From Candidatus Pelethousia sp. (GTDB lineage Bacteria; Bacillota; Clostridia; Christensenellales; CAG-138), in the NCBI GenBank assembly GCA_034933245.1, contig JAYFNX010000016.1, forward strand, positions 4,005 to 68,004: 64,000 nucleotides of DNA. Direction: 5' to 3'. Positions 1-21,733 of the stretch are shown one piece after another. Positions within the stretch are counted from its first letter, which is position 1, and every line of letters begins with the position of its first letter. The notes beneath the pieces are model-generated. The model saw only the letters and a program-made list of their open reading frames with translations, was not told the origin of the DNA and made no database searches. A program made the translations under genes and the position numbers.

Positions 1-1832
1 TAACCCGATCCAAATTTATGCGCATCGATGCAACATCCCGGCGCAATCTGGAACTGACGACGCCCATACGGGCAGATGGAAATAAAAAGAACACCTTGCT
101 ATATTTGCTGGATCAAACGGCCACGGCTATGGGAGGGCGTTTATTGCGCACCTGGATTGAACAACCGCTCCAAAACATAGCGGATATAAACGCGCGGTTG
201 GATGCGGTGGAATCCCTTGCAAATAAGCCGGTAGAACGGGAAGCCTTGGGAAAGGCCCTTTCCGCCGTTTACGATATTGAACGACTTTGCAGCCGCATTG
301 CCTATGGGTCTATAACCCCAAGGGATTGCCAGGCCCTTTCCCAATCTCTTTTCCGCATTCCGCAGATCTTGCCCATTCTGGATCTTCTAAAATCTGCGGA
401 ATTAAGCCGCATTCGGGATGGATTAGACCCTATGGAGGATATCGTATCCCTCCTTTGCAGCGCCATCGCCGAAAACCCGCCGCTCAGCGTAAAGGAAGGC
501 GGGTTTATTAAGGATGGCTATAACGCGGAGTTGGACGGCTACCGAACTGCCTCTCGTGACGGTAAGGATTGGTTGATAAAGCTGGAATCGGACGAGCGTA
601 CGAAAACCGGCATCAAAAACTTAAAAGTCGGGTACAACCGTGTATTCGGCTATTATATCGAAGTGAGCCGTTCAGCCGAACACTTGGTTCCCTATACATA
701 TCAACGCAAGCAGACCTTGGCAAATTGCGAACGGTATATTACACCCGAACTCAAAGAGCTGGAAAGCGCCATTCTAGGCGCGGAAGAAAAAGGTGTGGCT
801 CTTGAATATGCGCTTTTTCTTGAATTGCGCCGCGTCCTTTCCGACTGCATCGACCGTCTCCAGGAAAATGCCAGGCTTATCGCCAGCCTGGATGCTTATT
901 ACAGCCTCGCTCAAGCTGCCTTTATGCACGGCTATAATCGGCCCAAGCTGCAGATGAAGGGGAAAATTGAAATTTTGGATGGTCGCCATCCGGTAGTAGA
1001 ATGTGGCCTTAATGGAGGCTTTATTCCTAATAATACCCTATTGGATAGCAAGGAAAACCGCTTGCTGATTCTTACCGGGCCCAATATGGCGGGGAAGAGC
1101 ACTTATATGCGGCAGGTTGCCCTAATTGTCCTCATGTCCCATATCGGCAGCTTTATACCGGCCGCCTCCGCCTCCATCAGCATTACGGACCGGATCTTTA
1201 CCCGTATCGGCGCTTCGGACAGCCTAGCTTCTGGCCAAAGCACCTTTATGGTAGAGATGATGGAAATGAGCAACATTCTTAAAAATGCTACGGAAAATAG
1301 CCTGCTCATCCTTGATGAAATTGGCCGGGGTACCAGCACCTTCGATGGGCTGAGCATCGCTTGGGCCGTTTTGGAACATATTGCGGACAGGGCAAAATGT
1401 GGTGCCAAAACCCTGTTTGCCACCCACTATCACGAGCTCACAGAGCTGGAAGGAAAACTTGCCGGCATTAAGAATTACCGGGTATCCGTAAAAGAGGTGG
1501 GGGAGGATATCATATTTCTGCGCAAGATCGTCCGCGGCGGGGCGGATAAGAGCTTTGGCATCCAGGTTGCCCGTTTGGCTGGGCTTCCGGAGGACGTAAT
1601 TACCAGAGCAAAGGAAATTCTAAGCCAGTTGGAGGCTTCCGATATTAATCATGAGGCCATTTTGGATGGTGCCCAAGGGGAAGAAGAACCGGATCAGCAG
1701 CTTACCCTGTTTGGCCCAACTACGCCGGACGATATTGTCAACGACCTGCAACTTCTTGACGTAAATGCACTAACCCCGATGGATGCTCTAAACAAGCTAT
1801 ATGACCTGCACCTGCGTGCAAAACTGAGGTAA
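1..1832 (+). CDS. mutS: DNA mismatch repair protein MutS (5' end upstream of window)
   Basis: ORF 18..1832 has the MutS ATPase domain (Walker A GPNMAGKST, DEIGRGTSTFDG, THYHEL). The reading frame is open to base 1, so the internal Met at 18 is not the true start. Confidence 0.95.
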   Translation, partial: TRSKFMRIDATSRRNLELTTPIRADGNKKNTLLYLLDQTATAMGGRLLRTWIEQPLQNIADINARLDAVESLANKPVEREALGKALSAVYDIERLCSRIAYGSITPRDCQALSQSLFRIPQILPILDLLKSAELSRIRDGLDPMEDIVSLLCSAIAENPPLSVKEGGFIKDGYNAELDGYRTASRDGKDWLIKLESDERTKTGIKNLKVGYNRVFGYYIEVSRSAEHLVPYTYQRKQTLANCERYITPELKELESAILGAEEKGVALEYALFLELRRVLSDCIDRLQENARLIASLDAYYSLAQAAFMHGYNRPKLQMKGKIEILDGRHPVVECGLNGGFIPNNTLLDSKENRLLILTGPNMAGKSTYMRQVALIVLMSHIGSFIPAASASISITDRIFTRIGASDSLASGQSTFMVEMMEMSNILKNATENSLLILDEIGRGTSTFDGLSIAWAVLEHIADRAKCGAKTLFATHYHELTELEGKLAGIKNYRVSVKEVGEDIIFLRKIVRGGADKSFGIQVARLAGLPEDVITRAKEILSQLEASDINHEAILDGAQGEEEPDQQLTLFGPTTPDDIVNDLQLLDVNALTPMDALNKLYDLHLRAKLR

Positions 1833-1833
1833 C

Positions 1834-3750
1834 ATGAACAAGATCCAGGTTTTAAGCCTACATATCGCCAACCAGATCGCTGCCGGAGAGGTGGTGGAAC
1901 GGCCTTCTTCCATTGTGAAAGAATTGTTGGAAAACGCCATCGATGCGGGAAGCACCAGCATAACCGTGGAGATAGATGGGGGCGGGATAGAGTATCTGCG
2001 GGTAAGTGACAATGGTACGGGTATCCCCGCAGCGGATGTTCCCACTGCCTTTTTACGCCATGCCACCAGTAAGATCGCTACCGCGGAGGATCTGGAGCGC
2101 ATCCATACCCTGGGATTTCGGGGCGAAGCCCTTTCCTCCATTGCGGCGGTTGCCCGCATACGCCTTACGACCCGCACTGCGGAAGCAGAATCCGGTACAT
2201 GCATCGAGATTGCGGGAGGGGATATTCAATCGTGCGGCCCCATCGCCTGGGCGGAAGGAACCGGCATCGAAGTGCGGGATGTTTTCTATAACGTTCCTGC
2301 CCGGCGAAAGTTCTTAAAGAGCCGCAGGGCTGAAGCCGCCGCTATCGGCGATTTTGTCTCTCGGATTATTCTTGCCCACCCGGAGATTTCCTTTCGATTC
2401 CTGAATGCTGGAAAAACGATTTACCAAAGCCTAGGGGATGGGGATATAAAAAATGCCATCTATTGCGTTTACGGGAGCAAAGTTCTGGAGCATCTTCGTC
2501 CGTTTTCCTATGACGACGGGATGATAACCATCTATGGATTTTTGGGCACGGAACAGATTGCCCGCCCCAACCGGCTTCAACAATCCCTTTATGTAAACGG
2601 CCGGTATATCCACTCACAAAAAGTATCTTTTGCTGCCCAGCGTGCCTTTGATACCCGGCTCATGAGCGGAAAATTCCCATTTTACGTCATGCATTTAGGA
2701 CTTCCCTGGGATGAAGTGGATGTAAATGTCCATCCCCAGAAGCTGGAGGTTCGTTTTCGGGAAGAGGACACCCTCCTTCGGGCGGTTACGGTTGCTTGCC
2801 GAAAGGCCTTGGGGGACTCCGTCGCACCCCTGCTGCGGGGTGTGGATCTCCCGGCTTTTCGTAAGCAAACCAGCCATTTTGATGAAAAGATAGGGGAAGG
2901 GGAGACGATAGCGGAAAGGGAAGTGTACGTACCCTCCAATCTTAGGGAACAACTTGGAGACGGATTGCGGAAGGGAGAGGCTATGCCCATGCGCGAAGCA
3001 AGTGCAACGTCCTATTCCCATAGCAGACAAATCCAGAATTGGCAACGCGTCGATACACCAGCCTCTTTAAAAGAAGCCAGCCAGGACAATAAAGCAGATG
3101 AAAGAAAGTCAGCTCGGGAAGCCATGCCATCTCTTGCTGCTGCCGATGCGACGCTTCAAGCCGCTATGGAGTTTGGAGCTGCGCCTTACCGGGTGGTCGG
3201 ACAGCTATTTGATTGCTACTGGATTGTGCAACAAGGGGATCTCGTCTTCTTTATTGACCAGCATGCGGCCCATGAACGCCGGCTCTATGAGCGGCTGATG
3301 GCGGGTAATTTGGCCGGCGCTTCCCAGATGCTACTGCTGCCCGCTGTTGTTAAGCTATCTCCCGCCCAGTTTGACCTGCTTGTGAGCAACCTGCCTTCCT
3401 TTGCGGAGTTGGGGTTTGAGATGGAAGAGTTCGGCACTCTCACCGTGCGAATAACGGCTGTGCCGGATCTTCTGGGCGAAGCCCAAACGGTGGATTTTCT
3501 TTTTGAAGCCCTAGCCATGCTGGAAAAGCAGGGCCATATGGGTGCAAGGGAGCTTAAACGCGCCGCGCTCATCCAAGCATCCTGCAAGTATGCCATCAAG
3601 GCAGGTGCTGCGTTGGCACCCGAAGAAATCAGCACACTCCTGGAAGCATACTCGAAAAAGGGTGTGCCCATGACATGCCCCCACGGCAGGCCTGTTATGG
3701 TACAGATGCAAAAGCTGGAATTTGAAAAGCTGTTCAAACGGGTATTGTGA
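1834..3750 (+). CDS. mutL: DNA mismatch repair protein MutL
   Basis: GHKL ATPase N-terminus (ELLENAIDAG, DNGTGI, GFRGEAL) and a MutL C-terminal dimerisation region. ATG lies 2 nt after the mutS stop. Confidence 0.95.
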   Translation: MNKIQVLSLHIANQIAAGEVVERPSSIVKELLENAIDAGSTSITVEIDGGGIEYLRVSDNGTGIPAADVPTAFLRHATSKIATAEDLERIHTLGFRGEALSSIAAVARIRLTTRTAEAESGTCIEIAGGDIQSCGPIAWAEGTGIEVRDVFYNVPARRKFLKSRRAEAAAIGDFVSRIILAHPEISFRFLNAGKTIYQSLGDGDIKNAIYCVYGSKVLEHLRPFSYDDGMITIYGFLGTEQIARPNRLQQSLYVNGRYIHSQKVSFAAQRAFDTRLMSGKFPFYVMHLGLPWDEVDVNVHPQKLEVRFREEDTLLRAVTVACRKALGDSVAPLLRGVDLPAFRKQTSHFDEKIGEGETIAEREVYVPSNLREQLGDGLRKGEAMPMREASATSYSHSRQIQNWQRVDTPASLKEASQDNKADERKSAREAMPSLAAADATLQAAMEFGAAPYRVVGQLFDCYWIVQQGDLVFFIDQHAAHERRLYERLMAGNLAGASQMLLLPAVVKLSPAQFDLLVSNLPSFAELGFEMEEFGTLTVRITAVPDLLGEAQTVDFLFEALAMLEKQGHMGARELKRAALIQASCKYAIKAGAALAPEEISTLLEAYSKKGVPMTCPHGRPVMVQMQKLEFEKLFKRVL

Positions 3751-3751
3751 T

Positions 3752-4693
3752 ATGAACGAAAAAAAAATTGCCATTGGGGTATTGCTGGGACCTACGGCCA
3801 GCGGGAAAACCGCCCTGGGCGTGGCGGTTGCAAAGCGGTTGGAAGCACAGATTATTTCCGCAGATTCCATGCAAATCTACCGGGGTATGAATATTGGTTC
3901 CGCCAAGCCAACCGTGGAGGAGCAGGAAGGCATTCCCCACCATTTGCTGGATGTGGCGGATATCGATGGGCCAAAGTTTAACGTTGCACAATACCAGCGG
4001 TTGGCTGCGGCCGCCATCGCGTCTATCCATGCCGCAGGCGGGTATCCCTTGGTCGTTGGAGGGACGGGCCTCTATATTAACGCGCTTACCTGCGGGTTGG
4101 ATTTTAGCGAGACGGCCGGTGATGAAGGCCTTCGCGCCGAATTGGCTGAACAGGAAAAAGGACATCCCGGGGCCCTCTATGCGATGCTGCAAAAGGAAGA
4201 TCCAGATGCTGCACAACGCCTTCATCCCAACGATACGAAGCGCCTTATTCGAGCGCTGGAAGTCAAGAGATTGACAGGGAAGCCAATGTGCGCGGATTTT
4301 GAAAAAAGCGCGGCCGCAAACATTCCCTATGCACCCAAGCTGGTTGGATTGACCATGCCGAGGGAACTCCTTTATGCACGCATCGAAAAGCGAGTGGATC
4401 GTATGTTGGCCCAAGGCCTTCTGGAAGAGACGAGGGACATATGGGAGAAAGGTTATGATAGAAATCTACCTGCGCTGCAAGCATTAGGATATAAGCAGCT
4501 TTTTGCTTATTTTGCGGGTGAATCCACCTTGGATACGGCTGTGGATGTCATAAAGCGGGAGACGCGCCGCTTTGCCAAACGGCAGATGACCTGGTTCCGA
4601 CGGGATGCGCGCATTGTTTGGCTGGATATTACACAATACAGCGAGGCCGGACTTCTGGATGCGGCCTGTGCGATTTTGGCAGAGGAGATATGA
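3752..4693 (+). CDS. miaA: tRNA dimethylallyltransferase MiaA
   Basis: P-loop GPTASGKT and DSMQIYRGMNIGSAKP. The ATG at 3752 sits just after the mutL stop. The track start at 3722 is a TTG inside mutL. Confidence 0.92.
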   Translation: MNEKKIAIGVLLGPTASGKTALGVAVAKRLEAQIISADSMQIYRGMNIGSAKPTVEEQEGIPHHLLDVADIDGPKFNVAQYQRLAAAAIASIHAAGGYPLVVGGTGLYINALTCGLDFSETAGDEGLRAELAEQEKGHPGALYAMLQKEDPDAAQRLHPNDTKRLIRALEVKRLTGKPMCADFEKSAAANIPYAPKLVGLTMPRELLYARIEKRVDRMLAQGLLEETRDIWEKGYDRNLPALQALGYKQLFAYFAGESTLDTAVDVIKRETRRFAKRQMTWFRRDARIVWLDITQYSEAGLLDAACAILAEEI

Positions 4694-4694
4694 T

Positions 4695-4952
4695 ATGGGA
4701 AAGCCTTTGAATCTACAGGATACCTTTTTAAACGTTGCCCGCAGGGAACGCGTACCGGTTACCATCCATATAACAAATGGATATCAGATCAACAATGCCA
4801 TCATTTTAGGGTATGACAGCTTTGTGTTGCTGGTGGAAACAGAGGGCAAGCAGATGTTGCTCTATAAACATGCAATATCCACCATAACCCCGCAAAAGCG
4901 GGTGGAGTATAATAAAGAGCCAAAAAAGGAGATGGAACCCCATGCAGACTAG
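4695..4952 (+). CDS. hfq: RNA chaperone Hfq
   Basis: Sm-fold sequence LQDTFLNVARRERVPVTIHITNGYQINNAIILGYDSFVLLVE..MLLYKHAISTI. ATG at 4695 is 1 nt after the miaA stop. Confidence 0.9.
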   Translation: MGKPLNLQDTFLNVARRERVPVTIHITNGYQINNAIILGYDSFVLLVETEGKQMLLYKHAISTITPQKRVEYNKEPKKEMEPHAD

Positions 4953-6237
4953 CGACGACCGCTTCGAACCTTATAAAAAATTGGGCGTGGCGGATACGAG
5001 CATTGGATTTGTGCTGGATGCCGAGGCCGCTTTGGCCCCGGTTTTTGGACAGGTAGATGCCATAGAGGCCGCAAATGCGGCCCGGGTTTTGGAAGCTTTT
5101 CAAAAGGAAGGCGTTGCCCAGCGCCATTTCGCGCCCACTACGGGTTATGGTTATGACGATATCGGCCGTGACACATTGGATAAAGTCTTTGCCCATGCCC
5201 TTGAATGCGCGGATGCCTTGGTTCGTCCGCACTTTACAAGTGGTACCCATGCCATTTTTACAGCCCTTTCCGGCCTGTTGGAGCCGGATGACACCTTGCT
5301 CTCCATCACCGGCAAGCCTTATGATACGTTGGAGAACGCCATCGGCATTGCAGGGGATGCGCCAGGCTCTCTGCGGCGCATGGGCGTAAACTATAAGCAG
5401 GTGGAGCTCAAGGCTGATTCCATTGACCTTCCCAATGTGTTGGAAGCGCTGGAGGATGATAGTGTACGGGTGGTATATGTGCAACGCTCCCGTGGTTATG
5501 CCTGGCGCAACGCATTATTGCCCAAGGAGATGGGGCCTGTTTTCGACGCAATCCATAAAAAAAACACCGCAGCCTACATTGTGGTGGATAACTGCTACGG
5601 TGAATTTACACAACCGCATGAGCCCAGCTTCTACGGGGCGGATGTAATCATTGGTTCCCTGATTAAAAACCCGGGCGGCGGCATAGCGCCCACAGGCGGG
5701 TATATTGGAGGAACGCAAAAAGCCATCGCCCGCATAGAAGGGCGGCTAACCGTGCCGGGCATGGGCAGGGAAGTAGGCAGCTACGCGGGCAGCTACGTCC
5801 CCTTCTACCAAGGGCTGTTTCTTGCGCCTCATACGGTGGCGCAAAGCCTGAAAACCGCCGTGCTGTTTGCGCGTGTTTTTGAGGAAGCCGGGTTAATCAG
5901 CATGCCGCATAGCGCTGCACAGCGGAGCGATATCGTGCAGTCTTTGCGCTTTAAGAATGCGGACGGGCTCATTGCCTTTTGCCGCAGCATCCAAAAAGCT
6001 GCGCCGATAGATAGCTTCGTGACCCCGGAACCATGGGATATGCCGGGCTATCAGAGCCAGGTCATCATGGCGGCTGGGGCTTTTGTACAGGGCTCCTCCA
6101 TTGAACTGAGCGCTGACGGTCCTCTTCAGGCGCCGTATACAGCGTATGTGCAAGGCGGCCTTACCTATTCCCATGGCAGAATAGGCGCCATGTTTGCCGT
6201 GGACGCGCTGACAAAAATTGGAGAAATGTGCCTTTAA
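4942..6237 (+). CDS. YnbB-type PLP-dependent protein (methionine gamma-lyase / 'aluminium resistance' family)
   Basis: 431 aa with TTGYGYDDIGRD and SLIKNPGGG motifs typical of the YnbB family. Overlaps the hfq end by 11 nt. Confidence 0.8.
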   Translation: MQTSDDRFEPYKKLGVADTSIGFVLDAEAALAPVFGQVDAIEAANAARVLEAFQKEGVAQRHFAPTTGYGYDDIGRDTLDKVFAHALECADALVRPHFTSGTHAIFTALSGLLEPDDTLLSITGKPYDTLENAIGIAGDAPGSLRRMGVNYKQVELKADSIDLPNVLEALEDDSVRVVYVQRSRGYAWRNALLPKEMGPVFDAIHKKNTAAYIVVDNCYGEFTQPHEPSFYGADVIIGSLIKNPGGGIAPTGGYIGGTQKAIARIEGRLTVPGMGREVGSYAGSYVPFYQGLFLAPHTVAQSLKTAVLFARVFEEAGLISMPHSAAQRSDIVQSLRFKNADGLIAFCRSIQKAAPIDSFVTPEPWDMPGYQSQVIMAAGAFVQGSSIELSADGPLQAPYTAYVQGGLTYSHGRIGAMFAVDALTKIGEMCL

Positions 6238-6866
6238 TAGCGTCTGAATAAGGAAACCACCTTTCCAACCACAGCTACATCGTCATATGTAGCATAAATC
6301 GGCTCCATGCTTGGGTTTTCCGGCTGGAGCCTAATTTTATCCTGCTCAAAAAATATCCGTTTCACCGTAACGGAATCCTCACATACGCGCGCCACCACGA
6401 TGTCTCCATTCTCCGCTTTAAGGCCGCTGTGCACCACAATCATATCTCCATTTTGAATTCCCGCGCCAATCATGCTTTCCCCGCTTATACGAAGCATGAA
6501 GGCCTCATCCTGCTCTGCACCATGGAGAAGGGAGACAGGCAAGGAAATATATTCCTGAATGTTTTCAACGGCCAAGATAGGCTGGCCGGCAGCGACCGAT
6601 CCAACCAATGGAAGATCCCTATAAAGGGAGGCATTGTTACTAGGGGTAGGTACTTCCCCGCAAAGCGTGATGGAACGCTGCATAGAAGGGTGCTGTTTAA
6701 TCAGCCCCATCTCCGCCAGGTTTTTTAAATGCATATGCACCGTGGAAGTGGATTTCAAGCCCACTGCCGCGCAAATCTCCCGCACGGTAGGCGGAATGGT
6801 GTTTTCTTGGATGTATTTGCGGATGTAATCATAAACCGCCTGCTGAGATTTACCAAGCCTTTTCAT
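6234..6866 (-). CDS. lexA: SOS repressor LexA
   Basis: N-terminal winged HTH (PTVREICAAVGLKSTSTVHMHLKNL) and S24 peptidase Ser/Lys dyad (SGESM, TVKRI). ATG at 6866 is preceded by GGAGGT. The track ORF extends artificially to 6977. Confidence 0.93.
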   Translation of the reverse strand: MKRLGKSQQAVYDYIRKYIQENTIPPTVREICAAVGLKSTSTVHMHLKNLAEMGLIKQHPSMQRSITLCGEVPTPSNNASLYRDLPLVGSVAAGQPILAVENIQEYISLPVSLLHGAEQDEAFMLRISGESMIGAGIQNGDMIVVHSGLKAENGDIVVARVCEDSVTVKRIFFEQDKIRLQPENPSMEPIYATYDDVAVVGKVVSLFRRY

Positions 6867-6891
6867 GCTAACCTCCATGGATGGGATGTGG

Positions 6892-6897
6892 TATAAT
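6892..6897 (+). promoter_or_regulatory. Extended -10 element (TGgTATAAT) for the divergent ORF at 6976
   Basis: tgGTATAAT read at 6889-6897 on the + strand, about 80 nt upstream of the ATG at 6976. The -35 is poor. Confidence 0.45.
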
Positions 6898-6945
6898 ACT
6901 ATCATTATCGTGCTGCCGCAACTTATTATCGGCAGTATATCACAT

Positions 6946-6960
6946 AGTACAAATGTTTGC
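6946..6960. promoter_or_regulatory. Candidate LexA (SOS) box in the lexA / ORF-6976 divergent region
   Basis: AGTACAAATGTTTGC resembles the Gram-positive box CGAAC-N4-GTTCG and shares the core ACAAATGTT with the recA box at 16064-16077. It overlaps a possible lexA -35 (TTGTAC-N16-GATAAT on the - strand). Confidence 0.55.
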
Positions 6961-6975
6961 AAGGATGGAGATATC

Positions 6976-7332
6976 ATGAATCGTCAAGGAAAGCAAGAAT
7001 CGGATTATTGTGATCTGGACCCAACCAAGGTTTGCGATAATTGCTGCAGATGTTTGGATATGGACAAACAATACAATGAAGTGGAAGCCGAGCTTTCCCG
7101 CACGGATCGTATCGATGATGGAGCGCTGTTGGAGTTCCCCCTCGATTTTTATGAAGAAGAAGAGGGGGGGCAGTGCGACGCTTCCCAGGTCGCTCCCATC
7201 GAGATTGACCCGGCATTAAAAGAAGAATGGGAAACTCGCCTCAAGGCTTATGAAGCGGAACAAAAAACGGCCTATATGCGCACCTTGCGCGGTGTACGCA
7301 AAAAGCAGCCGAAAGACGGGGAAGAGGGATGA
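6976..7332 (+). CDS. Hypothetical Cys-rich, highly acidic 118-aa protein, divergent from lexA
   Basis: ATG at 6976 is preceded by GGATGGAG. The N-terminus carries 5 Cys in 15 residues (CDLDPTKVCDNCCRC), followed by an acidic stretch and a basic tail. No family recognised. Confidence 0.55.
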   Translation: MNRQGKQESDYCDLDPTKVCDNCCRCLDMDKQYNEVEAELSRTDRIDDGALLEFPLDFYEEEEGGQCDASQVAPIEIDPALKEEWETRLKAYEAEQKTAYMRTLRGVRKKQPKDGEEG

Positions 7333-7339
7333 TGCAGGT

Positions 7340-8389
7340 TTAATCCTCCCGAAGCTTTACCACTTGGGCCGCCTTACGTCTGTTGTCCTGGGATGCGGCG
7401 GCATAATGCTTGCGAGTGGTGTTCACATCCTTATGCCCCAGCACGTCGGCCACCAGATAAATATCTCCGGTCTCCCGATATAGGGTCGTGCCGAATGTGC
7501 TGCGTAGCTTATGGGGGGAGATATTCTTAAGGGGAACTGCTAATTTCGCATATTTTTTTACCAAATTTTCTACAGCCCGTACGGTGATTCTGCGGTTTTG
7601 AAGCGAAAGAAACAGTGCTTCCTCATGGCCTATCTGGGGCGTCATGCGTTCTCTTTCCAGCATATAGCCAAGCAGAGCGGTCCGCGCTTCCTCACCAAAA
7701 ACCAGAATGTCCTGCTTGCCGCCCTTACGGATGATAGAAAACTCATTGGCTGAGAAGTTAATATCATCCATGTTGATACCAACCAGCTCACTGATGCGGA
7801 TACCCGTGCCCAGGAAGAGGGTAAGGATAGCCAAATCCCTGGTTTGGGTGCGTTTATGATATTTCTTTTGCCCTTCCGTAAGGCCGTCTCCAGCCTGCAC
7901 GATATCCAGAAGATTCGCTACTTCGTCCGGTTCAAGGCGAATAATGGCCTGTTCGCGAATTACCGGTAAATCCACAAAGGCAGGCGCATTGGTAGCCAGC
8001 CTTTCTTTTTTATTAAAGTATTTATACAAGGCGCGCAGGGTGGAAAGCTTCCGCTTTTTTGCTCGCCCACCATTGAGAATCTCCTTTTCTTCTTCGTCCG
8101 TATAATAGGAAACATAACTTAAATAGTTCTCGATGGTGGTAATATCCACACGGTCCAGGTCCAACAAAGTGAGGGCTTGCATCGTTGCCTTTTCAAAACC
8201 CGGCTGGCAAATAAGGAAAGAAAAGAAGGTTTTTAGATCCACGCCATAAGCATACCGAGATCGAACCAACGTTTCATGTTCAATGCCTCTGAAGAATTCT
8301 CCACAAAAAGGAGGGAGCTCCTCGCAGAGACTCCGAAGCTTAAGCATATATTTTTTATACTCGCTTCCCGCATAATTGTCTGTAGCCAT
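7340..8389 (-). CDS. Tyrosine-type site-specific recombinase (Xer-like, 349 aa)
   Basis: C-terminal catalytic signature TGIRISEL ... HKLRSTFGT ... LGHKDVNTTRKHY (R..H-x-x-R..H..Y). ATG at 8389 is preceded by GAGGAG. No flanking phage or plasmid genes. Confidence 0.85.
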   Translation of the reverse strand: MATDNYAGSEYKKYMLKLRSLCEELPPFCGEFFRGIEHETLVRSRYAYGVDLKTFFSFLICQPGFEKATMQALTLLDLDRVDITTIENYLSYVSYYTDEEEKEILNGGRAKKRKLSTLRALYKYFNKKERLATNAPAFVDLPVIREQAIIRLEPDEVANLLDIVQAGDGLTEGQKKYHKRTQTRDLAILTLFLGTGIRISELVGINMDDINFSANEFSIIRKGGKQDILVFGEEARTALLGYMLERERMTPQIGHEEALFLSLQNRRITVRAVENLVKKYAKLAVPLKNISPHKLRSTFGTTLYRETGDIYLVADVLGHKDVNTTRKHYAAASQDNRRKAAQVVKLRED

Positions 8390-8432
8390 CTAAGCTCCTC
8401 ATAGTGCGTTCGCAATGCGATAGGATTGTTCC

Positions 8433-8472
8433 TATAACTATTCGTTAAACTTGCGTTTAACGAATAGTTATA
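8433..8472. repeat. Perfect inverted repeat, 18-nt arms with a 4-nt spacer
   Basis: TATAACTATTCGTTAAAC-TTGC-GTTTAACGAATAGTTATA. The arms were checked base by base as exact reverse complements. Located 43 nt upstream of the recombinase ATG. Confidence 0.95.
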
Positions 8473-8511
8473 ACGCTTTCAGGAGAAAATCACCGCATCT
8501 TGTTTTTTACT

Positions 8512-8955
8512 TTATCCCTGCCGCATTTGTTCAATGGCGCCCCTGGCTAATGCATCGCACCGATTGTTATACTCGTTGTCACTATGTCCCTTTACCTTAT
8601 GCCACGTAATTCGATGGTTTTTTGTATGGGCTAATAAGCGTTCCCATAAGTCTCGATTCTCAACATCCTTTTTTGCGGAGGTTTTCCAGTTGTTGCGCTG
8701 CCAGCCGGTTAGCCAGCCTTCATTAAACGCGCGGTATAAATAAGCGCTATCCGTATAGAGATCCACTGCACAAGGCTCGCGAAGCGCATCCAACGCGCAG
8801 ATCGCCGCCATGAGTTCCATGCGGTTGTTGGTCGTATAGGTTTCACTACCGGAAAGCTCCTTACAATGGTGATGATAGAGCAATATAGCGCCCCAGCCGC
8901 CCGGCCCAGGATTTCCAGAACACGCACCATCTGTATAGATCGTTATTTGTTTCAC
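8512..8955 (-). CDS. rnhA: Ribonuclease HI
   Basis: TDGACSGNPGPGGWG, TNNRMEL, TDS, GHSDNEYNNRCD (DEDD catalytic pattern). GTG start at 8955. Confidence 0.9.
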   Translation of the reverse strand: MKQITIYTDGACSGNPGPGGWGAILLYHHHCKELSGSETYTTNNRMELMAAICALDALREPCAVDLYTDSAYLYRAFNEGWLTGWQRNNWKTSAKKDVENRDLWERLLAHTKNHRITWHKVKGHSDNEYNNRCDALARGAIEQMRQG

Positions 8956-9011
8956 AATAATTGTTCCCTATTTCCTATTTTTTATACTCTATTATACCAC
9001 AGGAAAGACAA

Positions 9012-9041
9012 TTGACATATCCCCTGCTATAGTGCTATAAT
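9012..9041 (+). promoter_or_regulatory. Sigma-A type promoter for tRNA-Trp
   Basis: TTGACA (9012-9017), 18-nt spacer, TATAAT (9036-9041), about 30 nt upstream of the tRNA. Confidence 0.7.
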
Positions 9042-9071
9042 ATGAAAGCTGGCCTGTTCCAGTTTTTGTAT

Positions 9072-9145
9072 AGGGGCATGATGTAATGGTAACATAGCGG
9101 TCTCCAAAACCGTTCTTGAGGGTTCGAGTCCTTCTGCCCCTGCCA
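9072..9145 (+). tRNA. trnW: tRNA-Trp (anticodon CCA), encoded 3' CCA
   Basis: Hand-folded cloverleaf. Acceptor AGGGGCA/TGCCCCT, D stem ATGT/ACAT, anticodon stem GCGGT/ACCGT with loop CTCCAAA, T arm GAGGG-TTCGAGT-CCTTC, discriminator G plus CCA. 74 nt. Confidence 0.92.
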
Positions 9146-9154
9146 CAGAAAAAA

Positions 9155-9195
9155 AATCAGTAAATTTGCTTATAATTTACTGATTCTTTATTTTA
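9155..9195. terminator. Bidirectional rho-independent terminator (tRNA-Trp / P-type ATPase)
   Basis: 12-bp stem AATCAGTAAATT / AATTTACTGATT (9155-9166 / 9174-9185), flanked by an A-run upstream and CTTTATTTT downstream. Confidence 0.75.
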
Positions 9196-9214
9196 TATGT
9201 TCATGATTTATGCG

Positions 9215-11848
9215 TTACCATTTCTTTCTCCAGTTTCTCTGGAAAGCCTTTACCGTCTCTACAATGGGAACCACCAAGATGGCAAGGAATAAAGCGACCG
9301 CATATTCCAAGGCGCTAATATGCTCGAAACCAAAAGCGTCGGAGATACCCGGGAGATAAATAACGGCGGCCGTTAACAACAGGCTTAGCCCCATAGCGCC
9401 CCAAAGCACCCAGTTATGAGAGCCAAGGCGGAATATACTCCCCCGCTGGCTTCGCATATTAAAGCTGTGGAATATTTCCGCCATGCTCATGGTCAAAAAC
9501 GCCATGGTCATACCGTCGGGACTATTTGCGATTTCCCAAACGCCCGTCTCCAAAAAGTGCCCAATGAAGTAAGCCCCCAATGTCAGAAGAGATACCATAC
9601 AGCCCTGATAGAGCACATCAACGCCAAGCCCCCCGGCAAAAATCCCGTCTTCCGAACTGCGCGGCTGCCGGGCCATAAGATCCGGCTCGCCTTTCTCCAA
9701 CCCGAGAGCCAGGGCCGGGAAGCTATCCGTAATAAGGTTGATCCATAAAAGGTGTACGGGCTTTAAGATGATGAAGCCAAGGAGCGTGGCCAAGAACACG
9801 CTGAGCACCTCGCTCATATTGGCGCCTAGAAGAAATTGAATAGCCTTGCGTATATTGTCGTAGATTCTTCGGCCTTCCTCCACTGCGCCAACAATGGTGG
9901 CGAAATTATCATCCATCAATACCATATCCGCCACGTTCTTGGTAACATCCGTTCCTGTAATGCCCATGCCTACGCCAATGTCCGCGCTCTTGATGGAGGG
10001 AGCGTCATTTACGCCGTCCCCGGTCATGGCAGTGATGAATCCTTTTTTACGCCAAGCGTTTACAATACGCACCTTATGTTCGGGCTGAACGCGTGCATAT
10101 ACGCTATAATGTTCAATGGAATGTGCAAGCTCCTCATCGCTAAGCGTATTGAGCTGCGCGCCGGTAATCGCCTGGCTTGTCTCAAACAAAATCCCAAGCT
10201 CTTTGGCGATAGCAACCGCGGTATCGCGATGATCACCGGTAATCATCACCGGCCGGATGCCTGCCTGTTTACAAAGCTGAATCGCTTTCAGTACCTCGGG
10301 GCGAACGGGATCGATCATCCCCACAAGCCCCAGAAAGACCAGATTCTTTTCTAGTGAAGCAGGCGAAGTATCATCCGGAATTTCATCATAAAGCCGTTTC
10401 GCAGCGCATAAAACCCGCAGCGCCCGGTCCGCCATGGCCTTGTTTACGGAGAGAATCTCATCCCGCGCCTGATGGGTAAGCGGCAAAATCCGGCCGTCTT
10501 TTTCATAGGATACGCAACGTTTTAACACCTCATCCGGTGCGCCTTTTGTATATTGCACGAAGCCATCCGATGTTTTGTGCAGGGTGCTCATCATTTTGCG
10601 GAGGCTATCAAAAGGTGCTTCACCAATGCGTGGCATTTCCGCTTCCAGTGCGGGTTTGGACAGCCCTTCCTTTGTCGCCCAGTTTACCAGCGCACATTCC
10701 GTAGGCTCGCCAACGGCACCGCCGCTTTCGTCCGGAACTGCATCTGAACAAAGGGACATCGCACGGGCTACGGAATGGGATTTTCCATAACTTTCTACCA
10801 CGGTCATTTTGTTTTGGGTAAGCGTACCGGTCTTATCGCTGCAGATTACTTGCGCACAGCCAAGGGTTTCCACGGCGGTCAGACGACGGATAACGGCATT
10901 TCGCTTGGACATGTTTGTTACGCCGATGGATAGCACGATGGTTACAACTGCCGCCAGGCCTTCGGGTATGGCCGCTACGGCCAAGCTGACAGCTACCATG
11001 AAGGTATCAATCATCACATGCAAATGAAAATTTCCGGCCCGAAGCAACGCAACAACGAAGATAAAGGCACAGATGCCTAGCACAAGCCAGCTAAGTATCT
11101 TGCTTAGTTGGGATAGCTTGATTTGCAGCGGCGTTTTATTGTCCTCCGCTTGTGCCAAGACTCCGGCAATTTTCCCCATTTCCGTATCCATACCCGTGGC
11201 CACAATGACGGCGCGGCCACGGCCATAAACTACGGTGCTGCCCATGTAAGCCATGTTGCGCCTATCTCCTAAGGAGATATCCGAATCCGTTTCGCAAAAA
11301 AGCGTTTCTATGTTTTTGTCCACCGGTATGCTTTCGCCGGTAAGCGCCGCTTCCTCCATTTGAAGGCTGGCGGACTCAATGATCCGCGCATCAGCGGGCA
11401 CCGCATCGCCCGCTTCCAGCATGATTACATCGCCAACAACCAGCTCTTCGCTCTTCAACTGAAGGGCATTTCCATCCCGCAAAACTTTACTGGTGGCTGC
11501 CGTCATGGCCTGTAGGGCTTCAATGGACTTTTCCGCTTTGTTTTCCTGATATACCCCAAAAACAGCGTTGATAAGCACTACGAGCAGAATGATCACCACA
11601 TCCGCCATGCTTTCGCCACTATAGACGGCCGTTGCACCGGACACCGCGGCTGCGGCTATCAAAATTAAGATCATTGGATCTTTAAGCTGGCTGATGAACC
11701 GTTCAAATAACGTAGCCTTTTCGGCTGCTTTAAGCCTATTTCTTCCATTCTTTTCCAAGCGTGCCTCCGCCTCGCGAACGGATAGGCCGTTAGGCGTGCT
11801 TCCCTGCTTTTTCAGCACCTGTTCCACACTGGCTAAGTATGCCTTCAT
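9215..11848 (-). CDS. Cation-transporting P-type ATPase (P2, Ca2+-ATPase-like)
   Basis: 877 aa with TGES, DKTGTLT phosphorylation site, TGDHRDTA, GDGVNDAP and about 10 TM segments. Confidence 0.9.
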   Translation of the reverse strand: MKAYLASVEQVLKKQGSTPNGLSVREAEARLEKNGRNRLKAAEKATLFERFISQLKDPMILILIAAAAVSGATAVYSGESMADVVIILLVVLINAVFGVYQENKAEKSIEALQAMTAATSKVLRDGNALQLKSEELVVGDVIMLEAGDAVPADARIIESASLQMEEAALTGESIPVDKNIETLFCETDSDISLGDRRNMAYMGSTVVYGRGRAVIVATGMDTEMGKIAGVLAQAEDNKTPLQIKLSQLSKILSWLVLGICAFIFVVALLRAGNFHLHVMIDTFMVAVSLAVAAIPEGLAAVVTIVLSIGVTNMSKRNAVIRRLTAVETLGCAQVICSDKTGTLTQNKMTVVESYGKSHSVARAMSLCSDAVPDESGGAVGEPTECALVNWATKEGLSKPALEAEMPRIGEAPFDSLRKMMSTLHKTSDGFVQYTKGAPDEVLKRCVSYEKDGRILPLTHQARDEILSVNKAMADRALRVLCAAKRLYDEIPDDTSPASLEKNLVFLGLVGMIDPVRPEVLKAIQLCKQAGIRPVMITGDHRDTAVAIAKELGILFETSQAITGAQLNTLSDEELAHSIEHYSVYARVQPEHKVRIVNAWRKKGFITAMTGDGVNDAPSIKSADIGVGMGITGTDVTKNVADMVLMDDNFATIVGAVEEGRRIYDNIRKAIQFLLGANMSEVLSVFLATLLGFIILKPVHLLWINLITDSFPALALGLEKGEPDLMARQPRSSEDGIFAGGLGVDVLYQGCMVSLLTLGAYFIGHFLETGVWEIANSPDGMTMAFLTMSMAEIFHSFNMRSQRGSIFRLGSHNWVLWGAMGLSLLLTAAVIYLPGISDAFGFEHISALEYAVALFLAILVVPIVETVKAFQRNWRKKW

Positions 11849-17376: not shown

Positions 17377-17928
17377 TTATTCCAAGCTGATCGTATCTTT
17401 ATTCTTTATCACATAATCCACGCCGGATACAACCGTAAAGAACACGGAGATCCACATAACCACCATATCCAAGGGAAAGCCCACCAAACGAAGGGTCAGA
17501 TCATGCAGCAATACCATGGTGATGGCTACAAACTGGGAAACGGTCTTCACCTTTCCCATCCAGCTGGCGGCGATGACAACCCCTTTTTCAACAGCTACCA
17601 GGCGGAAGCCGCTAATAAAAAGCTCCCGGGCCACAATAATAATGGTGGCAATCGGGTTGAGCATATCCACGGCGGTAAGCATGACAAGGGCGCTTACGGA
17701 AAGAAGCTTATCCGCCATGGGGTCCATAAGCTTGCCAAAATCAGTGATCAGATTTCGTTTACGGGCAATTTGCCCATCCAGCATATCCGTAAAATAGGCC
17801 AACACAAAAATTACGGCAGCTGCATAACTCCACCAGCTTACGTTTAAATAAAAACAGACGATCAGGAGCGGCACCATGGCGATGCGCAGGAGCGTAAGTT
17901 TATTGGGCAGATTTATCTTTTTTAGCAT
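17377..17928 (-). CDS. pgsA: CDP-diacylglycerol--glycerol-3-phosphate 3-phosphatidyltransferase
   Basis: CDP-alcohol transferase motif DMLDGQIARK..TDFGKLMDPMADK. ATG at 17928. The track start at 17988 is a TTG inside rimO. Confidence 0.9.
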   Translation of the reverse strand: MLKKINLPNKLTLLRIAMVPLLIVCFYLNVSWWSYAAAVIFVLAYFTDMLDGQIARKRNLITDFGKLMDPMADKLLSVSALVMLTAVDMLNPIATIIIVARELFISGFRLVAVEKGVVIAASWMGKVKTVSQFVAITMVLLHDLTLRLVGFPLDMVVMWISVFFTVVSGVDYVIKNKDTISLE

Positions 17929-17969
17929 AGACGATGTAGCACTCCCTTTTCGTATAGTTTGTTCGATAC

Positions 17970-19259
17970 TTAAATTTGTTCGCCCCAAAGATCATAAGGG
18001 CCGGCCTTGGTAATGCGGACTTGAACAAAGCTTCCAGGTTGGGGGGGATGTTCGCCATACTGAAAGCGGATGCTTCCATCTACCTCAGGCGCCTCGGCAT
18101 AGGAGCGGCCATACGCCATAGTATCCTCAATCCCTTCCACAAGCACCTCATAAACGCGGCCGATTCGAGCCTGATTTCTGGAAAGAGAAATCGCCCGCTG
18201 CGCTTGCATCACCCTATCCAAACGGCCTTGTTTCACCGATTCTTCTATTTGATCAGTCATTTCGGCTGCCGGCGTATTTTCTTCTATAGAATAAGCAAAG
18301 GCCCCTAGCCGGTCAAATGGATGCGTTTGCAAGAATTCGGCCAATTGCCCGAATTCCTCCTCCGTTTCCCCCGGAAAGCCAGTGATGACAGTCGTTCGCA
18401 AAATAAAATCATGGCTTCTCTCACGGATATAATCTACCATATGACGGATATGTTCTGCCGATCCATGGCGGTTCATACGCCGCAAGACATGGGGCGCAAT
18501 GTGCTGAATGGGCATGTCCAAATAAGGGACAAGCTTAGGTTCGGCCAGCATCGCCTCCATTAAAGCCTCATCCACGGTATTTGGATAGGTATACAGAACC
18601 CGGATCCAGTGAAGGTCTTCTATTTTACACAGCGCCAGCAAAAGCTCGCGCAGCATGGGTTTTCCATATAGATCGCTTCCATACGCGGAGGTATCCTGGG
18701 CGATAACGGTCAATTCCACCACGCCTTCCGCCGCCAGCCTTTGGGCTTCCGCAAGAAGATCCTCCATAGGAACGCTTACACGTGGGCCACGGATAAGGGG
18801 GATAGCGCAATAGGTGCAGCGATTGTCGCATCCGTCGGCAATGCGAAGGTAAGCCGAATAGGGCGGCGTTGTAAGAACCCGCGGGCAGCAACCTTTCTCG
18901 GGGATCACGCCTGCCAGCTGGCAAATCCTGCGGACAAGCCCTTTATGGTCCTTTATCCCCCATATGAGATCCAGCTCGGGCATTTCTTCTTGGAGTTCCC
19001 GCGCATACCGTTCTGTAAGGCAACCGGTTCCAACGAGAATACGGCAATGGCCGGCGGTTTTATAGGCAGCCATCTCCAAAATGGTGTTAATGGACTCTTC
19101 CTTGGCAGGCGTGATAAAGCCGCATGTGTTCACAAGCAGAACGTCCGCCTCCGCCGGGTCTGTAGTAAGCGTAAAACCGGCGTTAACCAGCTCCGCCAGA
19201 ATATATTCGCTGTCCACCCGGTTCTTAGAACATCCAAGAGATACCATCCCTGCCTTCAT
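17970..19259 (-). CDS. rimO: Ribosomal protein S12 methylthiotransferase RimO
   Basis: UPF0004 N-domain (SLGCSKNRVDSE), radical-SAM CDNRCTYCAIP, C-terminal TRAM domain. Confidence 0.9.
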   Translation of the reverse strand: MKAGMVSLGCSKNRVDSEYILAELVNAGFTLTTDPAEADVLLVNTCGFITPAKEESINTILEMAAYKTAGHCRILVGTGCLTERYARELQEEMPELDLIWGIKDHKGLVRRICQLAGVIPEKGCCPRVLTTPPYSAYLRIADGCDNRCTYCAIPLIRGPRVSVPMEDLLAEAQRLAAEGVVELTVIAQDTSAYGSDLYGKPMLRELLLALCKIEDLHWIRVLYTYPNTVDEALMEAMLAEPKLVPYLDMPIQHIAPHVLRRMNRHGSAEHIRHMVDYIRERSHDFILRTTVITGFPGETEEEFGQLAEFLQTHPFDRLGAFAYSIEENTPAAEMTDQIEESVKQGRLDRVMQAQRAISLSRNQARIGRVYEVLVEGIEDTMAYGRSYAEAPEVDGSIRFQYGEHPPQPGSFVQVRITKAGPYDLWGEQI

Positions 19260-21733
19260 TCCATATCCTCCTCCGGTTTATGCGTTTCTCCGCCGAACAT
19301 CTCTGCGTAGTCGGCCGCCGTGATAAGCAGCTTACGAGGTTTGCTGCCATCAAAGCCGCTTACAATTTTCTTTTGCTCCATGATATCGATAAGCCGGGCC
19401 GCCCGTGCATACCCCACCCGAAGCCGACGCTGAATCATGGAGATCGATGCCTGCCCGCTTTCCAATACGATTTTCACCGCATCGGGAAAGAGCTCGTCCT
19501 CCTGCTTTCCGTTTCCTTGCGCGGGCCCGTTCTCTCCTGCGCAGGCAATTGTATCAAGGGAAACTTCGGAATATTGTTCCACCGGAGCCGTGTGATGAGC
19601 GGAGAAGAAATCCATCACCCGCTCTACCTCTTCGTCGCTGACATAAGCAGCTTGGGCTCTTATGGGTTTATTTGCCCCATTCGCATGAAAGAGCATATCG
19701 CCTCTGCCGAGGAGCTTTTCCGCTCCGCTTACGTCCATAATCACGCGGGAGTCCACCGCCGAGGACACCGTAAGGGCAATCCGGCTGGGTATGTTTGTTT
19801 TAATAAGGCCGGTGATAATATCCGTAGATGGTCTCTGCGTAGCCACAATCAGGTGAATGCCTGCCGCTCTTCCAAGCTGGGCAATACGGCAAATGGACTC
19901 CTCTACGTCTTTAGCGGCCACCATCATGAGATCCGCCAGTTCATCAATAATAATAACAAGCCTCGGAAGATTATCACCCACATCTTCCTGCAGAGAATTA
20001 TACCGATTTAGATCCCTCGCATTGACAAGAGACATCTTTTGGTACCGTTGCTCCATTTCTACAACGGCCCACTTTAAAGCGCCGGCCGCTTTCTTGGCAT
20101 CTGTAACCACGGGTAAAAGCAGATGCGGCAAGGGGGAGTACACTTTCAGCTCTACTTTTTTCGGGTCCACCAAAATCATGCGCAAATCGCAAGGCGCCGT
20201 ATGATAGATCATGCTCAAGATGATGTCGTTAATACAAACGCTCTTACCGCTGCCGGTAGAGCCCGCAATGAGCAAATGCGGCATGCGGTCTAAATCCGCA
20301 CATACCACCTTACCGGCAATATCCTTGCCTAAGGCAAAACATAAGGGGGATTTAGCAGCTATGAACTCTGGGGAATCAATGGCTTCCCGCAAAAGCACGG
20401 GTTGGATATCCTTATTCGGTATCTCGATTCCAATGGCAGCCTTGCCAGGAATGGGCGCTTCAATGCGCACACGGGGCGCCGCCAAAGCGAGCGCAATATC
20501 ATCCGAAAGGGTGGTAATGCGGTTTACCCGCACACCCTGGGCAGGCTGAAGCTCAAAGCGCGTGATGACGGGCCCTACGGTAATGTTGATGACCCGCGCG
20601 CTGATATTGAAGCTTTGGAGTGTTTCCACAAGCATGCGGCTTTTTTCCGCAGGAGATTCTTCAGCGGCATAATGGCGCTGGGGCGTGTTGAGCAAAGTAT
20701 AGGGGGGACGCTGGTAGGCCAAGATATCCGGCGTGGCGCTCGGAAGATCTGCCGTCTGTTCTTGAAGATCGTCTTGCGAGGTCTCCTCTTGCTTGTCGCC
20801 TTGGGCTTGTTCCTCCTTAAGCTCGTGTACCGTTACCGTCTTTTTTCGTTCCTTTCGGGAGGATATGCGGGTAATGGGCGCGTCTTCATCCGAAGCATGC
20901 ACTTCCACTTCAGATAAAATATCAAAGGGATCATCTTCATCTTCCCCTCGAAGCGGTAAATCTCCAGTGGAGGGGAAATAGGAAAGTTCATCGAGTTTCG
21001 GATTTCCGGAATCCTCGTCCACCAAAACGCGCCTTTCAACTTTTACTCCCGTATGACCGTGCCCACTAGCGGGATGGGGCGGTTCCAGGATTTCATTAAA
21101 AAGGTTCTTTTTTGTAACGTCGATTTTTTCTGCTACCACAGTGGCTCCGGTTTTAATCTGCCTACCCATCTTGACGCCTGCCGAACGCAAAGAAATTTGG
21201 GTAGCCACCAAAAATAGAATTACCAGGGCAGCGATAAAAAAGATGTTTGTCCCCACTGAACCTAAAAAGACCAAGGAAGGATAGGCCGGTAGCGCACCGA
21301 AAAGGCCCCCGCCCTTCTGCAGATTGCTGCCATATTGATAAGCATCCACATAATAATCCCATAAGCTTATGCCGCCTGTTGTGTTTCGTGCATGCGCATG
21401 TAGCAGTACCAAAATACAGACGAGAGCTAATACGGAGATCACGATGGTGGATCCGGCGGCGCCTTTACCCGAGGAGGAAGCAATGCATAGAATGCCAAGG
21501 ATTACCAAAATAAGAGGGAGCACATAGGTTATAATTCCAAATAAACCAAAACAGACCCGGTTTACCACCTGGCCAATAATACCTACGGCATCCACATATA
21601 AGCTGGCGGCAAAAAACAGGCCGAAAGCAATGAGCAAAACGCCCGTAGCCTCCCGCTTTATGCGCCTTTTCCGTTCCAGCACAGCCTTTGTTGCAGCTTT
21701 TTCACCTTTGGTTGGCTTTCCCTTTGCGGCCAT
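19256..21733 (-). CDS. ftsK: DNA translocase FtsK/SpoIIIE
   Basis: N-terminal TM helices, linker, motor domain with Walker A GSTGSGKSV, C-terminal gamma wHTH (ASISMIQRRLRVGYARAARL). Confidence 0.93.
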   Translation of the reverse strand: MAAKGKPTKGEKAATKAVLERKRRIKREATGVLLIAFGLFFAASLYVDAVGIIGQVVNRVCFGLFGIITYVLPLILVILGILCIASSSGKGAAGSTIVISVLALVCILVLLHAHARNTTGGISLWDYYVDAYQYGSNLQKGGGLFGALPAYPSLVFLGSVGTNIFFIAALVILFLVATQISLRSAGVKMGRQIKTGATVVAEKIDVTKKNLFNEILEPPHPASGHGHTGVKVERRVLVDEDSGNPKLDELSYFPSTGDLPLRGEDEDDPFDILSEVEVHASDEDAPITRISSRKERKKTVTVHELKEEQAQGDKQEETSQDDLQEQTADLPSATPDILAYQRPPYTLLNTPQRHYAAEESPAEKSRMLVETLQSFNISARVINITVGPVITRFELQPAQGVRVNRITTLSDDIALALAAPRVRIEAPIPGKAAIGIEIPNKDIQPVLLREAIDSPEFIAAKSPLCFALGKDIAGKVVCADLDRMPHLLIAGSTGSGKSVCINDIILSMIYHTAPCDLRMILVDPKKVELKVYSPLPHLLLPVVTDAKKAAGALKWAVVEMEQRYQKMSLVNARDLNRYNSLQEDVGDNLPRLVIIIDELADLMMVAAKDVEESICRIAQLGRAAGIHLIVATQRPSTDIITGLIKTNIPSRIALTVSSAVDSRVIMDVSGAEKLLGRGDMLFHANGANKPIRAQAAYVSDEEVERVMDFFSAHHTAPVEQYSEVSLDTIACAGENGPAQGNGKQEDELFPDAVKIVLESGQASISMIQRRLRVGYARAARLIDIMEQKKIVSGFDGSKPRKLLITAADYAEMFGGETHKPEEDME

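Follow-up and report, generated by a model that had tools for sequence, protein, structure and literature searches.

A 34-bp dif-like site beside a Xer-type recombinase gene in Clostridia: a probable, apparently undescribed one-recombinase system for chromosome dimer resolution

Good descriptions of chromosome dimer resolution exist for XerCD, XerS, XerH, XerA, and XerL, the last four of which are the single-recombinase systems named in reviews of 2017 and 2022. XerS/difSL is the system of Streptococci and Lactococci (Le Bourgeois et al. 2007, PMC1914069), and difSL is a site of 31 base pairs (bp) with unequal, imperfect arms (TTTCCGAAAA and TTTTCTTGAAA) and a central region reported as 11 bp (PMC5357621). 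XerH/difH of Helicobacter and Campylobacter consists of a single recombinase of 354-362 amino acids encoded next to its site (Debowski 2012; Bebel 2016, PMC5241119), and XerL of the Legionellales was found via a mobile element that mimics its site, the L. pneumophila xerL gene lying more than 400 kilobases (kb) from dif (PMC9765430). A 2011 survey of dif sites covered genomes with XerCD orthologues only, with 19 rows for Clostridia, and its dif predictions for some Clostridium botulinum strains are displaced by ~175 degrees from the shift point of the skew. For the Clostridia that are dominant in human and animal guts, a literature search for Xer systems and for the site string presented here returned no description, within a coverage that was incomplete and leaves an earlier description possible. 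Here we analyze a 64-kb stretch of DNA from Candidatus Pelethousia sp. (contig JAYFNX010000016.1; “the window” below denotes this whole stretch of 64,000 nucleotides [nt]), in which a conserved 34-bp sequence stands beside the gene for a tyrosine recombinase of 349 amino acids.

We consider it probable that the 34-bp sequence (8436-8469) is a dif-like core site and that the adjacent protein is a dedicated Xer-type recombinase acting in chromosome dimer resolution; together they appear to form a one-recombinase system, so far undescribed, that would separate sister chromosomes that have become joined. The original prediction, made from the window sequence, had proposed a single-recombinase dif-like module at a terminus-like switch, and that proposal is now supported by the conservation of the site, its layout of two 14-bp arms around a 6-bp center (14-6-14), a compositional switch within 0-3 kb, an FtsK gamma domain encoded nearby, and the insertion of an inovirus in the site.

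In the window, the arms TATAACTATTCGTTAAAC (8433-8450) and GTTTAACGAATAGTTATA (8455-8472) are exact reverse complements (100% complementary) with TTGC between them, forming a perfect 18-4-18 palindrome (8433-8472) that is unique there: the 18-mer arm has no second match in the 64 kb at three or fewer mismatches, with a chance expectation of 0.01. Exactly 43 nt (8390-8432) separate it from the ATG of the recombinase open reading frame (ORF). The original prediction had described this palindrome, the 43-nt gap, and the rnhA stop at 8512, and the window sequence bears it out in every detail; what did not stand is the 18-4-18 palindrome as the functional unit, its place being taken by the inner 34 bp with a 6-bp center, AACTATTCGTTAAA-CTTGCG-TTTAACGAATAGTT (8436-8469). 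The left arm, AACTATTCGTTAAA (8436-8449), is the predicted site for one recombinase monomer, and across 48 aligned host sites its C, T, T, C, and G and its inner AAA do not vary. The asymmetric center (8450-8455; CTTGCG on the plus strand) is a putative strand-exchange region of fixed length and variable sequence, and the right arm, TTTAACGAATAGTT (8456-8469), mirrors the left, placing the heptamers CTATTCG and CGAATAG at a fixed spacing of 16 bp. Inverted arms around a center of 6-8 bp are the layout of a core site. We rejected a classical dif: no Bacillus-type dif was found in the window, whose closest match to the Firmicutes dif consensus is 7 mismatches off.

We compared 82 host loci, comprising 80 from named genomes and one from a 2.44-Mb contig (81 fetched) together with the window. 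The named genomes belong to Christensenellales, Oscillospiraceae, and Lachnospiraceae, and include Anaerobutyricum hallii, Enterocloster, Roseburia, Blautia, and Hungatella. The pattern CTATTCG-N16-CGAATAG is present with exact spacing and at most two mismatches in 54 of the 82 loci, and six more carry recognizable variants; the site is found beside orthologous recombinases in Christensenellales, Oscillospirales, and Lachnospiraceae loci, meaning that the core of the palindrome is kept next to orthologues in several orders of Clostridia. The aligned sites read AA-CTATTCG-yw-AAA, 6 bp, TTT-wr-CGAATAG-TT, i.e., two equivalent 14-bp arms, and we write the generalized pattern as AACTATTCGNNAAA-N6-TTTNNCGAATAGTT. 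The AAA and TTT bordering the center are invariant; the center itself takes the forms CTTGTC, CTTGTG, GTTGTG, GTCTAG, and others. In two loci (L007 and L008) both arms have changed together, to CATTGCG/CGCAATG, and equivalent arms that change together are what one would expect if two copies of a single protein recognize the site. The full variant site, AACATTGCGTTAAA-CTTGTC-TTTAACGCAATGTT, occupies 5919-5958 in L007 and likewise 5919-5958 in L008.

All five close relatives examined carry the site, and in relatives at 85-86% protein identity a 30-bp core is identical while the remaining intergenic sequence is unalignable. An unbiased metagenome sample gave 120 sites; for 38 of them the same short locus also encodes an orthologous recombinase, and others have the usual host neighbors. 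From order to order the surroundings differ but the gene and the site remain linked, and each locus examined has one full site, as do the 64-kb window and the 102-kb contig MT835478.1.

The orientation of the asymmetric center relative to the gene varies between lineages. The relatives at 85-86% protein identity (L202-L206) have the same arms and center as the window at ~60-90 nt upstream of the recombinase, with the center reading CTTGCG in the direction of the gene where the window reads CGCAAG; the asymmetric center appears to have flipped in place within the perfect palindrome, perhaps by hairpin-loop inversion. One locus labeled Prevotella sp. (L075; CAVIRL010000039.1) carries a Lachnospiraceae-type site, a PP-loop ATPase gene, and a recombinase 80% identical to the L092 orthologue, and its label is probably a binning error.

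The gene beside the site (7340-8389, minus strand), preceded by a GAGGAG ribosome-binding site, encodes a Xer-type tyrosine recombinase related to XerS (349 amino acids; Pfam Phage_integrase, 1.6e-31). Its best-scoring NCBIfam family is XerS (NF003462), at 182 bits with a cutoff of 267, and the scores for XerC (146 bits; cutoff 335.15), XerA (142 bits; cutoff 220), and XerD (140 bits; cutoff 329.6) also lie below their cutoffs. The comparison with known families suggested earlier thus has a divided outcome: XerS is the best family, its equivalog cutoff is missed, and the site is unlike difSL. On these scores the recombinase is not a XerS member, and plasmid genes named xerS by the Prokaryotic Genome Annotation Pipeline share 31-32% identity with it over 95-98% of the length. 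The catalytic residues R197, K221, H292, R295, H318, and Y328 are invariant in 13 orthologues, and this full R-K-H-R-H/W-Y set combined with affinity to the Xer subgroup is what characterizes the recombinases of Xer/dif systems. The nearest solved structures are XerD and XerA, with a weaker match to XerH (5jjv; expectation value [E] = 2.3e-7), and the search of solved structures gave no Cre-like match at E <= 1e-3. An AlphaFold model built with 13 close orthologues was poor (mean predicted local distance difference test score 57.6; catalytic domain below 50), and we kept it out of the fold searches. The recombinase has more than 8000 homologues, the best 120 of which, as listed, are 64-100% identical and ~349 amino acids long, an unusually high conservation for an integrase. 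No second tyrosine recombinase is encoded in the 64-kb window. We rejected a plasmid-borne recombinase, plasmid matches being at most 37% identical, and also a phage-borne one, the two 50% matches in a phage collection both lying on bacterial-chromosome-like contigs.

The site lies close to a switch in base composition. GC skew in the window is positive over positions 1-6000 and negative in all but one 2-kb bin of 8001-62000, and the cumulative G-C curve has its plateau at 5962-8239, with the maximum at 7534, 0.9 kb from the site. At ~6.2 kb, four plus-strand genes give way to genes almost exclusively on the minus strand, an orientation switch that had been noted before and that the window ORFs confirm. 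In four contigs the cumulative skew peaks at distances of 34 bp, 0.9 kb, 2.5 kb, and 3.2 kb from the site, which also forms the end of two uniform skew domains, one of 94 kb and one of 55 kb. In MT835478.1 (102 kb), a run of 94 kb of co-oriented genes with a skew of +0.13 to +0.23 ends at the single site (94,423), and the skew drops to -0.26 within 6 kb beyond; this contig, registered as “Bacteriophage sp.”, is evidently a fragment of a bacterial chromosome. Pooled over ~50 loci, mean GC skew goes from +0.062 across the 500 bp on the left of the site to -0.042 across the 500 bp on its right, a sign change that holds although the first right-hand genes point the same way as the left genes. At third codon positions, the skew of these first right-hand genes is -0.076, similar to that of genes judged to be on the lagging strand (-0.077 and -0.133) and unlike that of left-flank genes (-0.013). 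On the contigs and loci read here, the local picture looks like that of a terminus.

An FtsK/SpoIIIE translocase gene (19256-21733, minus strand; FtsK_4TM, FtsK_alpha, FtsK_SpoIIIE, and FtsK_gamma domains, the last at 1e-27) lies 11 kb from the site, and the orthologous locus L001 has the same gene in the same place; its product, with the gamma domain, is a candidate activator of recombination. We also note that MT835478.1 (L329, L330, and L208) and MT835555.1 (L207), both deposited as “UNVERIFIED: Bacteriophage sp.”, encode a host recombinase orthologue with the site upstream, and both look like bacterial chromosome fragments.

Recombination at the site is recorded in a pair of metagenome contigs, one empty (L218) and one occupied (L265), whose flanks are 94-98% identical and which differ by a 6.7-kb insert (995-7683 of L265) exactly at the site. 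The order in the empty contig is dtd, site, PP-loop ATPase gene, recombinase. The left junction of the insert is a perfect site, AACTATTCGTTAAA-CTTAGG-TTTTGCGAATAGTT, and the right junction is a degenerate left arm, CGCTTTCGCTAAACTACGAC, joined to AGG-TTTTGCGAATAGTT and followed by the host flank; this junction structure therefore places the crossover inside the site, in the stretch formed by AGG and the right arm. Within its 6.7 kb the insert, an inovirus, has genes for a Zot-type assembly ATPase and a G2P-type rolling-circle replication protein; no integrase gene was found there. The precise insertion of an integrase-less phage shows that a host enzyme recombines the site sequence. A further six elements that encode Zot or a rolling-circle Rep lie directly against the site (L173, L120, L164, L076, L241, and L298), of which L173 and L120 are proviruses from isolate genomes and L076 has its element in the left flank (Hungatella). 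By analogy with CTXphi at dif, the insertion pattern is that of integrative mobile elements that exploit a Xer system. Near the right end of the L265 insert there are two imperfect site-like sequences (7580-7613 and 7681-7714) ~100 nt apart, each with AACTACCGCTCCG just upstream, an arrangement that recalls the paired attP of CTXphi but in direct rather than inverted repeats.

The site also occurs in tailed phages. We scanned IMG/VR with a degenerate site pattern and retrieved at least 120 contigs (L082-L201) with one site each; only one of the 120 listed contigs, a host fragment, carries the host-type recombinase. In at least 88 of the 120 listed, which are tailed phages of 35-60 kb, the site lies ~70 nt downstream of a terS-like gene of ~225 codons (e.g., L135, with the site at 8409-8438 and the gene at 8511-9254). 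This gene sits between replication genes and the genes for the terminase large subunit and portal, and some members of its family match terminase small subunits (PF16677, phrog_606). The tailed phages could use the site for integration, for resolving multimers of a plasmid-like prophage, or in a way linked to packaging. We rejected tailed prophages integrated at the host site, since the host loci examined have no tailed prophage at the site and no terS-type genes beside it. A DNA search of a phage collection for annotated relatives of these phages gave matches of transfer RNA (tRNA) size only.

We infer from these features that the recombinase encoded beside the site is the acting enzyme and that it serves dimer resolution, in a mechanism along the following lines. 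One recombinase monomer would bind each 14-bp arm, making a homodimer per site, and the two sites of a chromosome dimer, or of linked sister chromosomes, would synapse as a tetramer. Tyr328 would cut at the edges of the 6-bp center, and two successive pairs of strand exchanges would add one crossover and convert the dimer to monomers. The reaction would take place at the meeting point of the two replichores, where the site would lie, and would probably be licensed at the septum by the FtsK gamma domain. Integrase-less filamentous phages carrying an imperfect copy of the site would insert into the chromosomal site by the same reaction, regenerating a perfect site on one side.

Several observations weigh against this reading. 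The putative pairing of enzyme and site draws on adjacency, and the recombinase scores below the XerS equivalog cutoff (182 versus 267 bits). About 20 of the loci, in Lachnospiraceae, have the recombinase and no site in the available sequence (up to 6 kb upstream); about 10 of these have 6 kb of upstream sequence, and several have almost none, some less than 200 nt. In two contigs the skew maximum falls at the gene-orientation switch, 2.5-3.2 kb off, and not at the site. Copy number and skew were read on contigs and loci and not on whole chromosomes, and the loci do not count as independent evidence of a terminus because their synteny is conserved. For the complete chromosomes behind L001, L020, and L023, the sequence read extends to 10 kb of flank; their coordinates, counted from arbitrary starts, are uninformative on the distance from the origin. 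The tie of the site to terS in tailed phages is unexplained by a dif model. Finally, XerC/XerD and a classical dif, if present in these genomes, would require the role of the module to be rethought.

Such observations bear on the first alternative, that this is a true recombination site served by another enzyme or in another role, e.g., by another host Xer protein or phage factors, in decatenation, or alongside XerCD/dif. We regard this as unlikely, though worth keeping in view: only adjacency and co-occurrence assign the enzyme, the loci with the gene and no nearby site are as many as ~20, and the fixed position of the site beside terS in tailed phages is a hint that it has uses other than dimer resolution. 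Against it, the site is unlike a XerCD-type dif in a window that holds no Bacillus-type one, its equivalent, co-changing arms fit one homodimeric enzyme, and the linkage of gene and site persists across orders despite changed surroundings. In addition, a single chromosomal copy at a compositional switch (in the window and in MT835478.1) leaves only the copies on sister chromosomes as partners for recombination.

A second alternative is that the palindrome is merely an operator, through which the recombinase or another dimeric regulator controls transcription of the recombinase gene without any recombination. The distance between site and gene is informative here. In 29 loci of Christensenellales and Oscillospirales type fewer than 260 nt (about 40-250 nt) separate the site from the recombinase gene downstream of it, 43 nt from the ATG in the window, a placement directly beside the recombinase gene that is that of XerS/difSL-type systems and that an operator would also have. 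In 21 Lachnospiraceae loci, by contrast, the site lies 0.7-2.9 kb away, with a PP-loop ATPase gene directly upstream of the recombinase, and in 5 of these 21 opposite-strand genes intervene, namely a dtd homologue and, in four of them, also an ORF of 450-480 codons outside the domain scan. Displacement of the site by up to 2.9 kb, with opposite-strand genes in between, and its presence without the gene in at least 120 phage contigs mean that an operator role cannot be its main function. Equally at odds with a mere operator are the filamentous phage inserted with its crossover within the site and a center whose length is fixed at 6 bp and whose AAA/TTT borders are conserved, as is typical of strand-exchange regions. 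We therefore think it very improbable that the site is an operator and nothing else. Of the autoregulatory operator in the original prediction, the part that makes it the sole or main function falls, and promoter control of the recombinase is excluded as a conserved function; an added function where the site is close may hold, and an operator role could exist alongside recombination. With the site 43 nt upstream of its ATG, the recombinase may, as a secondary effect, dampen its own expression.

Isolated half-sites also bear on regulation, since L009, L010, and L076 retain a left half-site 70-180 nt upstream of the ATG though the full site is further off. These half-sites, ACTATTCGTTAAA, lie at 5078-5090 in L009, 5916-5928 in L010, and 5822-5834 in L076, and others occur in L006 and L028; the full site follows another 290-540 bp upstream. 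Such half-sites could be remnants of earlier insertions or belong to an operator.

The remaining alternative places an RNA element between rnhA and the recombinase gene: a hairpin acting as an intrinsic terminator or in transcript processing or stabilization. It is scarcely credible: the palindrome does lie between two co-oriented genes with no sigma-70-like promoter detected between them and would fold on the minus strand into a stable RNA hairpin of -23 kcal/mol, but this is followed by GGAACAATCC with no U tract, a terminator scan made no call at the palindrome, the arms are conserved in base identity and not in pairing alone, the site recurs in other transcriptional contexts, in other orientations, and in phages, and no Rfam family matches the palindrome. 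The earlier view of the hairpin as a poor intrinsic terminator agrees with the missing U tract and the silent scan, and the weak promoter proposed with it (TTAAAC-N17-TTATAG) falls below the threshold of the promoter scan; we accordingly rejected both a promoter and a terminator at the palindrome, neither being called.

The neighbors of the recombinase are housekeeping genes. On the minus-strand side are lexA (6234-6977), rnhA (ribonuclease HI, 8512-8955; the palindrome lies between its stop and the recombinase ATG), and genes for a P-type ATPase and a dipeptidase, followed by rny, recA, cinA, a UPF0004/radical-SAM/TRAM gene, and the FtsK/SpoIIIE gene. The plus-strand side has miaA and a Met_gamma_lyase-family gene, to which L001 adds mutS, mutL, and hfq; the window ORFs at 18-3750 were outside the domain scan. 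A CDP-alcohol phosphatidyltransferase gene stands in L001 where the window has an ORF of 203 amino acids (17377-17988), also outside the domain scan.

Between lexA and the recombinase, on the opposite strand, all close relatives have a small ORF of 114-155 amino acids without a family match (window 6865-7332, plus strand; L001 11047-11391; L202 4061-4435), a position that in Bacillus is occupied by the SOS-controlled yneA. Control by LexA was rejected: the window has no GAAC-N4-GTTC LexA box anywhere. A lone tRNA-Trp gene (9072-9145, plus strand) lies within the long minus-strand region, preceded by a perfect TTGACA-18-TATAAT promoter (9012-9041) and followed by a 16-nt inverted repeat (9151-9189).

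A site of this kind would be of use in several ways. It could mark the terminus in thousands of draft and metagenome-assembled genomes, and it would explain how these bacteria are lysogenized by integrase-less filamentous phages. Matching the central regions of phage and host sites could give a clue to phage host range, and the compact pair of recombinase and site would be native to organisms that are hard to engineer. Exploitation by phages lifts the system above a routine new family member, and if the tailed phages integrate in the same way they would be, to our knowledge, an unusual case of tailed double-stranded DNA phages exploiting Xer.

Comparison with the described systems suggests, tentatively and at somewhat less than even chances, a fifth, undescribed single-recombinase Xer/dif family that would also be an integration platform for integrase-less inoviruses of Gram-positive anaerobes and for many tailed gut phages with a mimic of the site downstream of terS. 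XerS/difSL shares with it a single recombinase of ~350 amino acids encoded directly beside the site, a terminus-like location, the presence of FtsK, and similar arm cores (TTCCGAAAA in difSL; TTCGCAAAA or TTCGTTAAA here). The two differ in the site, which here has 34 bp, equivalent arms, and a 6-bp center, whereas difSL has 31 bp, unequal arms, and a long center; in the protein, at 182 against 267 bits and 31-32% identity to xerS-named genes; and in the hosts, which are Clostridia and not Streptococcaceae. XerH/difH likewise places one recombinase by its site, and its arms, with a similar core (ATGAAAA), end in GAAAA/TTTTC around a short center as they do here, but the protein similarity is weak (the match to 5jjv given above), the arms are different, and the hosts are Epsilonproteobacteria. 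XerL and its dif have in common with this system a single recombinase and long uninterrupted inverted-repeat arms, whereas xerL is far from dif and here gene and site are linked; we see no specific sequence relationship between the two.

The loxP site of phage P1 has a 13-8-13 layout of 34 bp. The resemblance to it that the original prediction had drawn holds for the layout, with the same total length and inverted arms, and fails as sequence kinship: the site here is 14-6-14, the recombinase has no Cre-like match among solved structures, and its context is housekeeping instead of phage. The ATAACT at the start of the arm is a chance match, and we rejected the likeness to loxP as coincidence. 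The closest parallel in phage exploitation is XerCD/dif with CTXphi, VGJphi, and TLCphi, where a site at the replichore junction is likewise entered by integrase-less filamentous phages that leave one functional and one degenerate site. In contrast to XerCD/dif, with its two paralogues, distinct half-sites, and a 28-bp dif of unrelated sequence, the system described here would have one recombinase and has equivalent arms, and its hosts are Gram-positive anaerobes.

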